A stretch of 64,000 nucleotides of DNA from Gracilimonas sp. Lineage in GTDB: Bacteria > Bacteroidota > Rhodothermia > Balneolales > Balneolaceae. Where the stretch lies: assembly GCF_031581265.1 (NCBI RefSeq), contig NZ_JAVLBQ010000007.1, positions 11,259-75,258 of the forward strand. The letters are read 5' to 3'. Made by a program: the position numbers and the translations under genes. The notes beneath the pieces are model-generated. The model was not told the DNA's origin. It ran no database searches and was given only the letters and a program-made list of their open reading frames with translations. Within the stretch, counting starts at the first letter, position 1. Each line of letters opens with the position of its first letter. Shown one piece after another: positions 17,841 to 52,356 of the stretch.

Positions 17841-17867
17841 GGACATACAACTTGTATGTCCTTTTTT
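17841..17867 (+). terminator. Rho-independent terminator of the DUF5916 gene
   Basis: ggacatacaacttgtatgtcc hairpin followed by tttttt. Confidence 0.8.
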
Positions 17868-17928
17868 ACTTTACGCAATAGCGAGTTGGAAAAATATCAC
17901 CACCAACCCATAAAAACCCCATCATTGC

Positions 17929-18234
17929 TGTAGATGTTAGATAATTCGTTGACACCTACTAGTTAGTTTTTCAAATAATACGTTAAAGTCCTCCCTTGAA
18001 GGAGGTGCCTGACTGAGCAGATGCGAAGTCTGGCGGTGGGTGTTGAAGCTAAGGGCAACACGTCTTTTATTATCTCATTATCTCCATTAATTTTGATTCT
18101 GAGCTGTATCAGACTACATTTTCCTTGGCACCAACACCCCTCAAAATCAGTCAGGAACAACTGACTGATTTATCTCCCCTCCAGGGGAGACTTCACTTTC
18201 CTAAACTTTTGTCAACGAATTATCTAACACCTAC
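17929..18234. mobile_element. 306-bp non-coding MITE-like element with 25-nt TIRs shared with the GIY-YIG cassette
   Basis: TIRs at 17930-17954 and 18210-18234 match 24/25. The interior is a long imperfect palindrome. The element interrupts a CGTCATTGC^GAGG repeat arm. Confidence 0.7.
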
Positions 18235-18342
18235 AATTTCGAGGAAACGTCAAAGTATAATGTCGATTTGGTAAATATAACGACGAAACAATCTCCTGGA
18301 CACAGGCTTGATGTTCACCAACGCGCCCTTAGCAAGTAAGTG

Positions 18343-18417
18343 CCCCAATGGCAGGAGACCCAGCATCTCCATGTTTATTCCGTGCGGGATGACAGCCTCT
18401 AGGTAGTTTCGTTTAAA
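18343..18417. repeat. Dispersed repeat (ccccaatggc.ggagaccc...ccgtgcgggatgacagcc...ggtag.ttcgttt)
   Basis: About 75 nt closely parallel to 19981-20056. Confidence 0.7.
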
Positions 18418-18440
18418 TCTACTCTGAACTCCATAAATGT

Positions 18441-18493
18441 CCGTCATCCCGGAAAAGACGAAATGAAATGGAGTCGCCGATCCGGGATCTCCC
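18441..18493 (+). repeat. REP-like hairpin CCGTCATCCCGG...CCGGGATCTCCC
   Basis: Differs from 26138-26191 at only 4 positions. The terminal arms catcccgg and ccgggatc are complementary. Confidence 0.75.
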
Positions 18494-18514
18494 TAACACC
18501 TAACACCTAACACC
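18494..18514 (+). repeat. Tandem heptamer (taacacc) x3
   Basis: Three exact tandem copies directly abutting the stop codon of the DUF2892 gene. Confidence 0.8.
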
Positions 18515-19615: not shown

Positions 19616-19657
19616 TTTAGTGTTCTAAAAAACTACCTCCGAACCACATAAAAAACC

Positions 19658-19710
19658 CCGTCATCCCTGACAAGATGCAGCAAAGCGAAATTGCAGAACC
19701 GGGATCTCCC
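19658..19710 (+). repeat. REP-like hairpin CCGTCATCCC...CCGGGATCTCCC
   Basis: Same termini as 18441 and 20473 with a different loop. Confidence 0.65.
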
Positions 19711-19980
19711 TGATTCGGCTTGGGATGTGAAACAGCGAGACAGAGGATATTGCATTGCTATGATTAAACAGATTGCCGCAGGCTGTATTCGCTATCGCTC
19801 AAGTCAGCCTTCGCAATGACGGGTTGGTGGAGGGGTTTTTAAAATACCACTTTAAAACCCATGAAAACCCGTCATTGCGAGGCGGAAACAACATATAACG
19901 TAGGTGGGGATACTCTAACAACGAAGCAATCCCCCTAATACAACTTGTGTTGTTCAACAACGTCCCATTGGTAAATAAAT

Positions 19981-20113
19981 CCCCAATGGCGGGAGACCCC
20001 ACATTTCCATGTTCATTCCGTGCGGGATGACAGCCTTTGGGTAGCTTCGTTTTAAAAAACCCGGACAACTACACTTCGATATAGAATATTCCTCTGTTCA
20101 ATATTGAATATTC
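19981..20113. repeat. Composite dispersed repeat (paralog of 18343-18417 and of 13069-13158)
   Basis: The ccccaatggcgggagaccc...gggatgacagcc...gttttaaaaaacccgg...gaatattcctctgttcaatattgaatattc sequence parallels both loci. Confidence 0.7.
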
Positions 20114-31836: not shown

Positions 31837-32133
31837 AGAATTATGTGCCGTAAATGATAGTCGTTGACTTTCGAAATGTACGTTATACAAACAGTCTAAA
31901 CCAATGAATTATTTCAAGTTTTGTAAACAGTGAATATGGAAATGGTAGTTCCGGTACAAAGTCGTCTAAGTTTTTGAATATGATTGAAAATGAATGAATT
32001 TATAATTTTGACCTGAGTTCGATTTATATTGATTTGCAAATAACCTTAGTTGTCACTCTTGTAGATATTAGATAATTCGATGACAAAAATGAGGTTGCCC
32101 TAATACTTCCAAAACTAATACTACATTCCCAAA

Positions 32134-32295
32134 AGTTGTCATCCCGAGTGCCCCATAAAAATCAAAAGATTATAATTATATAAGTGAACACGAGGGATCT
32201 CAACGTCTTATTAGGGATGTCGTTCAAACCTTGAGATCCATCGCGTTCACCATAACAGGCCCCATGCAACCCGCCGGGCGCTTTGGATGACAACT
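32134..32295. repeat. Double-stem palindromic element, copy 2 (inside the GIY-YIG cassette)
   Basis: The outer arms are agttgtcatcccgag and ggatgacaact. The inner arms are cgagggatctcaa and ttgagatccatcg. Confidence 0.65.
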
Positions 32296-32306
32296 ATTGA
32301 GGGTAT

Positions 32307-32597
32307 TCAAGAAAACCAATCCTTAGCGAGATCTTCCCAGTTAGGGTTCATACTTTCAATAAGCTCAATTTTCTTTTTTCGACTCCACCCTTTAATCTCC
32401 TTCTCTCTTTGTATAGCATATCCAACATCGTCCGTCCAGTCGTAATAGACCAATGAGTGTAGGTTATATTTTTTGGTAAAGCCTTCTACTAACTTATTCT
32501 TATGCTCATAGATTCTTCGCTCAAGATTACCGGTCATCCCGGTATAGATCATTTTGGAGGTATTACCTAGCATATAAACATAAAAACGCTTTTTCAT
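32307..32597 (-). CDS. Stand-alone GIY-YIG nuclease-domain protein (96 aa)
   Basis: FYVYML....MIYTGMTGNLERRIYEHK...YYDWTDDVGYAIQREKEIKGWSR matches the GIY-YIG/URI domain pattern (GIY...YTG...R..EH...E..IK). Confidence 0.85.
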   Translation of the reverse strand: MKKRFYVYMLGNTSKMIYTGMTGNLERRIYEHKNKLVEGFTKKYNLHSLVYYDWTDDVGYAIQREKEIKGWSRKKKIELIESMNPNWEDLAKDWFS

Positions 32598-32674
32598 ACT
32601 TGTTAGAGCGATGAGAATACAATTGCTTACAAATTTTTTTATTTGTCATCGAATTGCATAACATCTACCACTCT

Positions 32675-40010: not shown

Positions 40011-40374
40011 GGGGGTGTTCTGGATTCGACGGGTTGAGTATCACCGTTGGTTGCATGTCGAGATTGTCCAATGATTCTCGTAATAACAATCATTATGGTT
40101 CAAAAGTAATTGACAATAATTACTCATACCGCTTAGCAGCTTAAACTGTTGAGCCGTCCCGCTGGTTAAGTGCCTATCATTGCCAGCCCGGACGTCATAC
40201 AAGATAGGATAGCGTTAAAGTGCTTTCTGTCGCTTTAGCGTAAAACTAAAACAGAATAGTTTGAAGTCGCTTAGGTACTGGGCTCGGCTTCAGGCGAATG
40301 TCAATCAGTACCTACACATGTAGATGCTAACAGGTCTACCTTCCCGGACCGGGGTTCGACTCCCCGCACCTCCA
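40011..40374 (+). ncRNA. ssrA: tmRNA (SsrA)
   Basis: The 5-prime gggggtgttctggattcgacggg pairs with the 3-prime ggttcgactccccgcacctcca, including a G3:U acceptor pair. An internal reading frame ends ...NNYSYRLAA then TAA (40142-40144). Confidence 0.92.
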
Positions 40375-40384
40375 CTATAATTTA

Positions 40385-45401: not shown

Positions 45402-45574
45402 GGTAGATTGGAAGGTTTATTAATTTATTACGTAACAATTAAAAGGGGCTCAATTATTGGTAGAATCGAGGACTAAGTCAATGCCATTAACAAGAATTTG
45501 AGGTGTACTATAATTCTTTTGATAACTGTAGAAAAGAAATATTTGAATTAATTGAGATACTGTTTAGTTTCTTA

Positions 45575-45790
45575 GCCGATTAATGATGGTCTTTGGATAT
45601 TTTTTGATCCGAAGTTAAAAGGGAATCTCGTGAAAACCGAGAACTGTTCCCGCAACTGTAATCCGAATCCGCCGTTTGGTGGATCACTTGCAGCCTTACC
45701 TTTGCCACTGTTCCGGAAGGGACGGGAAGGCGCTGCCAACGGAAAGTCAGGAGACCTGCCATCATCGAACCGTAGCACCTCTTTCGGGTA
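45575..45790 (+). promoter_or_regulatory. Cobalamin (B12) riboswitch
   Basis: aaaagggaatctcgtgaaaaccgagaactgttcccgcaactgtaa...gccactg...gggaaggc...agtcaggagacctgcc (B12 box). P1 pairs atgatgg (45583-45589) with ccatcat (45759-45765). It lies upstream of a TonB-dependent receptor. Confidence 0.9.
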
Positions 45791-52081: not shown

Positions 52082-52106
52082 GTTTCTATGATTTTAGGTG
52101 TAGAAA

Positions 52107-52338
52107 GCTATTTTGGCTTTGGCAACAACACCTCTCACAATAAATACAGGAACAATTGCATTTATTGACCTCTCCTCAAGGAGAGACTATTCGTTGAAGC
52201 ATAAAAGATTTGAAGCTGAATTGTTTAACGGATATTGATTTGTCACAAGGCTAAGTCCTCCCTTGAGGGAAGTGCCTTCATTTTTAACTTGTTAAAATGA
52301 GCGGTGGGTGTTCGTACTAAGGTTTAACTATTTTTTCT
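52107..52338. repeat. 232-bp palindromic insert flanked by a 10-bp direct repeat
   Basis: ggtgtagaaa occurs at 52097-52106 and 52339-52348. The interior carries arms related to the 17929 element (gtcctcccttgagggaagtgcc, gcggtgggtgtt, cctctcctcaaggagagac) in inverted order. Confidence 0.6.
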
Positions 52339-52356
52339 GGTGTAGAAAAAACCGTA

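Follow-up and report, generated by a model that had tools for sequence, protein, structure and literature searches.

Among described mobile elements, those closest to the ones reported here belong to the IS481 family, with which they have in common one rve-type DDE open reading frame (ORF) of ~330 amino acids in ~1 kb, TGT...ACA termini, and non-autonomous deletion derivatives with common ends. Most IS481 members duplicate 6 bp of the target, against 5 bp here; the latter falls within the range of 2 to 15 bp reported for the family (PMC10045372). Further differences are a strict position specificity for a hairpin repeat, inverted repeats (TIRs) that are near-invariant across several phyla, and a transposase whose score does not reach the curated family cut-off and whose identity to the IS481 transposases annotated on plasmids is only ~27%. 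The REP-targeting IS, among them IS1397/ISKpn1 and ISPsy8 (IS3) and IS621, ISPpu9/10 and ISPa11 (IS110), likewise enter palindromic repeats that abound between genes, always at the same place, and the survey of these elements covers five families (IS3, IS110, IS4, IS256 and IS5), from which IS481 is absent (PMC1525189). Because the place is fixed and the repeats are abundant, copies of such IS accumulate in repeat clusters. Unlike the RAYT-linked REPs, however, the target described here consists of NTS/SRM hairpins linked to Ssn, whose stems are entered in the 5' arm, directly behind GTC-N5, and 5 bp are duplicated.

These hairpins were described by Chenal et al. (2025), who reported the Neisseria NTS, CGTCATTCCCGCGMAVGCGGGAATCYRG, and a broader class of Ssn-related motifs (SRM) (PMC11893778). 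NTS/SRM repeats flank ssn genes, whose products are small single-domain GIY-YIG nucleases (~95 amino acids, cd10448) that cut single-stranded DNA beside the motif, and SsnA cuts single-stranded DNA only, a few nucleotides upstream of the motif (PMC11893778). Neither the TIRs analyzed below nor any DDE element is mentioned in that paper, and searches of the literature on GIY-YIG with REP or MITE, and on IS481 with MITE and palindromic repeats, found nothing relevant.

We analyzed a window of Gracilimonas DNA (the whole stretch, 64,000 nucleotides long) in which a 307-bp element interrupts an intergenic hairpin repeat. We conclude that this element is very probably a MITE of a ~1046-bp IS481-like IS, moved in trans into GTC-N5 hairpin sites, and that a GIY-YIG cassette in the same window is its sister element. 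A MITE is an ordinary kind of element; the target of this one is unusually precise and newly relevant.

The element and its interrupted host repeat

The MITE extends from position 17929 to 18235 of the window, has TGT...ACA tips and lies downstream of a DUF5916 gene. The features of the element and its surroundings are the following:

17875-17928, + strand: left part of the interrupted host SRM-like repeat; its alignment to 19811-19878 crosses the element boundary
17924-17928, + strand: left target-site duplication, ATTGC, with ATC on its left (17921-17923) in place of the GTC of the paralog and of the family target
17929-17954, + strand: left TIR, TGTAGATGTTAGATAATTCGTTGACA, 26 bp, IRL type, with 1 difference when set against the IRL consensus (34 full-length elements)
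18210-18235, - strand: right TIR, also of IRL type, matching the left TIR at 25/26 positions
18236-18240, + strand: right target-site duplication, ATTTC, matching the left copy at 4/5 positions
18241-18420, + strand: right part of the host SRM-like repeat, with 78.7% identity to 19916-20055
19871-19882, + strand: uninterrupted paralogous target, GTC-ATTGC-GAGG

The inverted repeats on which the original prediction of a MITE-like element was based are real. Neither end, over its 26 positions, has more than 2 departures from the IRL consensus of the 34 full-length copies (among the matches listed), and the TIR pattern at up to three mismatches has three matches in the window, namely the two MITE ends and the left end of the cassette at 32060, compared with an expectation of 0.00 from 100 shuffles. 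The right end of the cassette (32644-32669) is a more diverged TIR with five mismatches, and the two elements have ends of one family, as had been proposed. The boundaries had been drawn slightly differently: what was taken for an extra t before the left TIR is base 1 of the TGT...ACA repeat, and the duplication, predicted to be 6 bp, is the 5-bp pair ATTGC/ATTTC, its counterpart in the cassette being ACTCT/ACTCT.

Analysis of inverted pairs bore out an interior that is an imperfect palindrome. Folded as single-stranded DNA, the interior reaches -57.9 kcal/mol (z = -8.1); its ORFs are at most 65 amino acids long, and a Pfam search with them gave no match. The left subterminal stretch ACTAGTTA matches the 5' leader of a Balneola element. 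With its small size and want of transposase coding capacity, its TIRs, a duplication of the parent's length, shared ends and dispersed copies, the element has the properties by which MITEs are recognized, although the 64-kb window holds one copy only. A plasmid collection contained no DNA match to the MITE, and a search of sequencing runs for reads of the same strain yielded only 5-7% word share. The right TIR together with the duplication (18209-18237) forms an outward promoter-like site, TTGTCA-17-TACAAT; since targets usually start with AT, the TACA/AT junction would recur, and the count of promoter-like sites at the TIR/duplication junction was not above the shuffle expectation.

When the element is excised, 17860-18440 aligns with 19800-20075 across both boundaries, the downstream flank being 78.7% identical over 141 nt (E = 1e-27), and the insertion site reads GTC-ATTGC^GAGG (the caret marks the insertion point). 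The proposal that the second locus is an empty site therefore stands insofar as flank homology to an uninterrupted copy runs through both ends, but that copy is a paralog and not an ortholog. In the three closest relatives (Bax1-I 91-95% identical), the interval between DUF5916 and ygaP is without the whole ~640-bp block 17875-18510, from which it follows that the block is lineage-specific and that the MITE is nested within it. The closest homologs of the GIY-YIG and Bax1-I proteins of the window come from Gracilimonas or Balneolaceae. Signs of ageing in the window copy are one TIR mismatch, one duplication mismatch and the change of GTC to ATC, and to judge from these the copy looks aged and not fresh.

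SRM-like hairpin blocks at 17875-18510 and ~19640-20075 are both absent from the orthologous intergenic regions of the Gracilimonas relatives L122, L123 and L125, so the blocks themselves would have spread recently in the lineage. Elsewhere in the window, a tmRNA gene (40011-40377, tag DNNYSYRLAA) and a cobalamin riboswitch (45570-45777), both ordinary, stand upstream of a region that includes a class II ribonucleotide reductase.

The IS481-like partner and its hairpin target

We scanned 185,579 species genomes for GTAGRTRTTAKRYAATTCGNNGACA, a pattern derived from the window TIRs themselves and thus yielding a biased sample, and obtained at least 112 loci. Among the matches listed, the hosts are Balneola, Gracilimonas, other Balneolaceae and many Dehalococcoidia, and further Thermodesulfobacteriota, Patescibacteria, Ignavibacteriae, Dadabacteria, Bacteroidales and proteobacterial MAGs. 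Pairing of the ends gave 61 TIR-bounded elements, and ~35 elements of 1042-1052 bp, each filled by a single ORF of 328-343 amino acids, span Balneolaceae, Dehalococcoidia and other phyla (again among the matches listed).

The ORF is a single rve-core DDE frame, uninterrupted by a frameshift, that matches Pfam rve, rve_3 and rve_2 and in which the motifs HIDTH, SDNGPEF and TNGKIERFW are visible. It scores 190-196 bits against the NCBIfam IS481 model (NF033577) versus 75-78 bits against IS3, and the full-length termini, TGTAGA...TCTACA, and the 5-bp duplication also agree with the IS481 family. As IS481 is the best-matching family but the score stays under its curated cut-off (190-196 versus 224 bits), we refer to the partner as IS481-like. 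In metagenomes, a cut-off of E below 1e-30 gave at least 2997 clusters of the transposase (90% identity), for which "integrase core domain" is the only annotation; most of these clusters lie on contigs of ~1040 bp, a length characteristic of multi-copy repeats that have collapsed. Internal-deletion derivatives of the ordinary kind include an element of 557 bp with transposase remnants (L097) and one of 167 bp (L049). One Balneola chromosome bears three identical full copies (L008, L075 and L103) together with a 335-bp MITE (L081), and a full copy (L064) is present in a Gracilimonas assembly; within the 64-kb window, neither a full-length copy nor a transposase was found. Sharing its ends with autonomous, transposase-encoding elements, the MITE must be mobilized in trans, as the original prediction had supposed; the autonomous driver, which its title implied to be the GIY-YIG cassette, is to be replaced by the ~1046-bp IS481-like DDE elements that bear the common ends.

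Two further arrangements of these elements were observed. TIR copies are nested or in tandem on one strand at L033 (5405-6156), L014, L040, L059 and L117, which suggests insertions into hairpins carried by another element, or solo ends. At L009, L055, L068 and L033, GTC-N5 flanks the element to the left and N5'-GAC to the right, and a duplication is absent; the entire inside of a hairpin repeat seems here to have given way to the element, possibly through recombination between two insertions.

The target site is defined by the elements with enough flank, 37 of 60 of which have perfect 5-bp duplications and 8 more a 4/5 match (among the matches listed), a 5/5 match being expected by chance once in 1024. 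GTC precedes the left copy or GAC follows the right copy in all but ~3 of the 45 elements with a duplication of at least 4/5, nearly all elements of the census stand directly after GTC-N5, and this position rule holds in more than 40 independent insertions (all three statements among the matches listed). The fixed position in the repeat arms that had been noticed at two loci is thus general to the family. The duplicated 5-mers are ATTCC, ATCCC, ATCCT, GTTCC, ATTCT, ACTCT and ATTGC. In 31 of 45 empty sites reconstructed from the matches listed, the reverse complement of the duplicated 5-mer follows no more than 75 nt downstream, mostly at 10-13 nt, which places the insertion in the 5' arm of hairpins that read GTC-N5-...-N5'-C. 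CGTCATTCC^CGCGAAAGCGGGAATC is the sequence at many sites, the NTS form that was matched is CGTCATTCC^CGCG...GGAATC, and many target sites fit the NTS consensus CGTCATTCCCGCG...GCGGGAATC. Only 4 of the 45 reconstructed sites (among the matches listed), and none in the window, conform to the strict published SRM pattern, and for this reason we call the target NTS/SRM-type and not SRM; the Gracilimonas repeats are a long-looped variant. Relative to GTC, the transposase is oriented one way in 23 cases and the other way in 7 (among the matches listed), and since both orientations occur, recognition is not strictly asymmetric. An Ssn nick was considered as the insertion site and rejected, the reported Ssn cut being upstream of the motif, ~12 nt from the insertion point. 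At L166 (2161-2709, - strand), a bacterial RNase P RNA (210.7 bits) has an insertion of ~190 nt that contains GTCATCCTGAAC...GTTTCAGGATC hairpins, which means that this class of hairpin repeat has entered an essential RNA gene.

The GIY-YIG cassette and the paired hairpin modules

The cassette consists of the following features:

32060-32669, + strand: sister non-autonomous element with common TIRs, 610 bp
32307-32597, minus strand: gene for a GIY-YIG (Ssn-like) protein of 96 amino acids
32055-32059 and 32670-32674: target-site duplication ACTCT/ACTCT (5/5), after GTC at 32052-32054

The kinship between MITE and cassette that had been proposed lies in the common TIRs, whereas BLAST finds no homology between the two beyond 26-29 nt. 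The cassette contains one nested hairpin repeat unit, and in contig L001, from a metagenome, a cassette 88% identical to it occupies a different locus, where its neighbors are an SLT gene and recQ and its GCAAT/GCAAT duplication lies beside GAC. Three loci of a single Balneola chromosome, and Balneola sp. EhC07 as well, contain a second TIR-bounded cassette, which is 522 bp long and whose GIY-YIG protein shares only 40% identity. Mobile insertion cassettes (MICs), for example MIC231 of Bacillus cereus, are IS ends around passenger genes. The GIY-YIG cassette is like them in that IS ends enclose a non-transposase passenger in multiple copies with duplications, but here the passenger is a nuclease that belongs with the IS's own target repeat.

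The cassette protein matches Pfam GIY-YIG (E = 1.3e-12 over 96 amino acids), and its residues Y6, Y18 and E65 line up with Y6, Y17 and E64, which were mutated in SsnA, the alignment resting on published positions. Its only relative of solved structure is the UPF0213 protein BH0048, a weak match. Homologs 76-78% identical (a Balneolaceae MAG and Gracilimonas sp. Q87) are without TIRs and are flanked by tandem nested palindromes of 170-190 bp, GTCATCCTGAGCG...CGAAGGATATC...GATATCCTTCG...CGCTCAGGATGAC; homologs in Alkaliphilus and Anaerolineales have hairpins of the same GTC type at their flanks, and GTCATCCTGAG...GGATC units flank the homologs in Balneolaceae, Gracilimonas, Alkaliphilus and Anaerolineales alike. 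Because its homologs are flanked by GTC-hairpin repeats, we consider the cassette gene Ssn-like and the "repeat arms" of the original prediction its repeats. The cassette protein would thereby be a candidate member of the described Ssn group (PMC11893778), small single-domain GIY-YIG proteins whose genes are flanked by such repeats. The differences are that TIR elements and a DDE transposase are absent from the published description, that the Gracilimonas repeats are long-looped and fall outside the strict SRM pattern, and that the MITE itself encodes nothing.

In TIR-less relatives a hairpin repeat stands before the gene, and a comparison of 32598-32669 with L005 (1915-2003) showed that in the cassette the 3' end of this repeat is replaced by the gene-proximal TIR. 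At the junction, GATGACAA is common to the cassette and these relatives, whose leaders are homologous from this point as far as the ATG; the junction may be a microhomology footprint of cassette formation. Capture of ssn genes by the element is plausible, given that these genes are embedded in its preferred targets.

The interior of the MITE carries two modules, and a second pair of them lies elsewhere in the window:

17985-18054, + strand: module A, with a hairpin CCTCC-N6-GGAGG, a variable hairpin and then GGTGGGTGTTG...CTAAGG
18123-18193, + strand: module B, an inverted, diverged copy of A, whose minus strand resembles Rfam whalefall-1
52115-52325, + strand: second B/A pair, permuted (B then A), without TIRs

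Each module is laid out as GTC, a conserved first hairpin, a variable second hairpin and, after these, a G-rich or C-rich strand; the two strands, G-rich in A and C-rich in B, pair with each other. A 10-bp direct repeat, GGTGTAGAAA, stands on both sides of the permuted pair (52097-52106 and 52339-52348); it could be an insertion duplication of the module pair, or chance. A scan of metagenomes for the A hairpin found 51 loci, and among the A units at other loci 42 are distinct and keep the pairing of the second hairpin across different stem sequences. In 5 of the 51 loci the module pair is enclosed by the MITE's TIRs in the order repeat-A-B-repeat, each after a different GTC-N5, and these five metagenome copies make up a MITE family of 78% mean column identity. 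Most module loci are free of TIRs and consist of A..B pairs (15), B..A pairs or single units, and the modules lie mostly between convergent genes. No gene linked to the A/B modules was found across the 51 loci; a link to the GIY-YIG gene, which is present in only 1 of the 51, was considered and dropped. Other short elements of this IS likewise carry internal GTC...GAC palindromes.

At the gathering threshold, no Rfam match was obtained in or near the element. Below it, module B matches whalefall-1 with 21.2 bits (E = 0.0056, against a gathering score of 37), and both window copies are under the threshold. To our knowledge, whalefall-1 was previously known only from whale-fall metagenomes; it also occurs above threshold (38.2 bits versus 37) in a marine metagenome contig with an A/B pair (L169, 2533-2588, - strand). 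The minus strand of module B has in common with the described motif (RF01762; Weinberg et al., 2010; PMC2864571) the two-hairpin layout with a conserved first hairpin. It differs in its low score and in being one half of an inverted pair within a dispersed DNA repeat family. A circularly permuted ribozyme was considered for the A..B and B..A orders and was rejected in favor of BIME/REPIN-like units in alternating orientation, B being A in inverted and diverged form. On the basis of these sequence features, we interpret the modules as a putative family of REP/BIME-like hairpin repeats that is related to whalefall-1 and resembles SRMs in miniature.

Rival readings, mechanism and wider meaning

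Three other explanations were weighed against a MITE mobilized by an IS481-like transposase. It is highly improbable that the cassette's GIY-YIG (Ssn-like) nuclease mobilizes the TIR elements, with the cassette as the autonomous element and the MITE as its derivative. The ends and target position common to both, the recurrence of TIR-bounded GIY-YIG cassettes in two gene families as diverged as 40% identity, one of them at three loci of a single chromosome, and a target drawn from the hairpin family that Ssn proteins recognize (PMC11893778) all speak for such a driver. Yet only ~8 of ~65 TIR-bounded elements have the GIY-YIG gene, compared with ~35 that encode the DDE transposase (among the matches listed), and close homologs of the nuclease do without any TIRs. 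Moreover, the hallmarks of a DDE element, TGT...ACA tips and a duplication fixed at 5 bp, are present, and the restriction of SsnA to single-stranded DNA, cut upstream of the motif, does not place a cut at the insertion point. Some possibility, though in our view a rather unlikely one, attaches to a decayed and immobile MITE that has persisted, in a genome without active transposase, through a repeat block spread by duplication. The mismatches in TIR and duplication, the change of the target GTC to ATC, the empty search for a transposase within the 64-kb window, the identity of only ~78% among family members and the lineage-specific repeat block agree with this fossil state; TIRs that still match at 25/26, ends within two positions of the consensus of active-looking copies, and full-length copies in the genus (L064) and the family argue against it.

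That the A/B pair is itself the functional unit, as a structured small RNA or a protein-recognized element of single-stranded DNA (whalefall-1-like) for which the TIRs are one vehicle, seems improbable. In Rfam the window copies stay under the threshold, both orders of the modules occur, mostly between convergent genes as with REP/BIME-like DNA repeats, and the 51 module loci provide no linked gene, the GIY-YIG gene being present in only one; all this weighs against a function of the pair, even though dozens of contigs have conserved modules, mostly free of TIRs, with second hairpins that pair through many different stem sequences, and each of them starts as GTC-N5-loop-N5', like a miniature SRM. 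The whalefall-1 matches, sub-threshold at both window copies and above threshold in one module-bearing contig, likewise count in its favor.

We therefore retain the explanation by trans-mobilization, in which the MITE is a non-coding, non-autonomous derivative of the ~1046-bp IS whose single DDE (rve-fold) ORF is closest to IS481. By analogy with the chemistry of the DDE/IS481 family, the transposase, supplied in trans, would bind the 26-bp TIRs, cut at the TGT...ACA tips and join the ends to a target cut with a 5-bp stagger, repair of which would leave the 5-bp duplication. Insertion takes place directly behind GTC-N5, at a depth of 5 bp in the 5' arms of the NTS/SRM-type hairpins that accompany Ssn nucleases. 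Anatomy, common ends, duplication length, common target and the presence of autonomous copies in related genomes are what we observed; the chemistry, the mode of hairpin recognition and any continued mobility of the aged window copy are what we infer. The cargo is an inverted pair of conserved two-hairpin modules that are also found TIR-free elsewhere, and the cassette at 32060-32669 is a second non-autonomous element of the same IS, with the ssn-like gene as passenger and not as driver.

On a wider scale, we tentatively consider it possible, if doubtful, that an IS481-like clade has specialized on Ssn-related NTS/SRM hairpins at one phosphodiester 5 bp into the stem, repeatedly picking up ssn genes and hairpin modules, and serves as a cross-phylum vehicle for Ssn/SRM systems and whalefall-1-like modules; such a clade may recognize the extruded hairpin and not the duplex. 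The MITE exposes an IS clade that is very common in metagenomes, with near-invariant ends across phyla and specificity for a single position in a hairpin. This clade is a concrete candidate route for the movement of ssn genes and their repeats, and a natural system for how a DDE transposase reads a hairpin-forming target. It also provides a rule for annotating intergenic repeats in Balneolaceae and Dehalococcoidia: TGTAGATGT... ends of 26 bp, with a 5-bp duplication, after GTC-N5.
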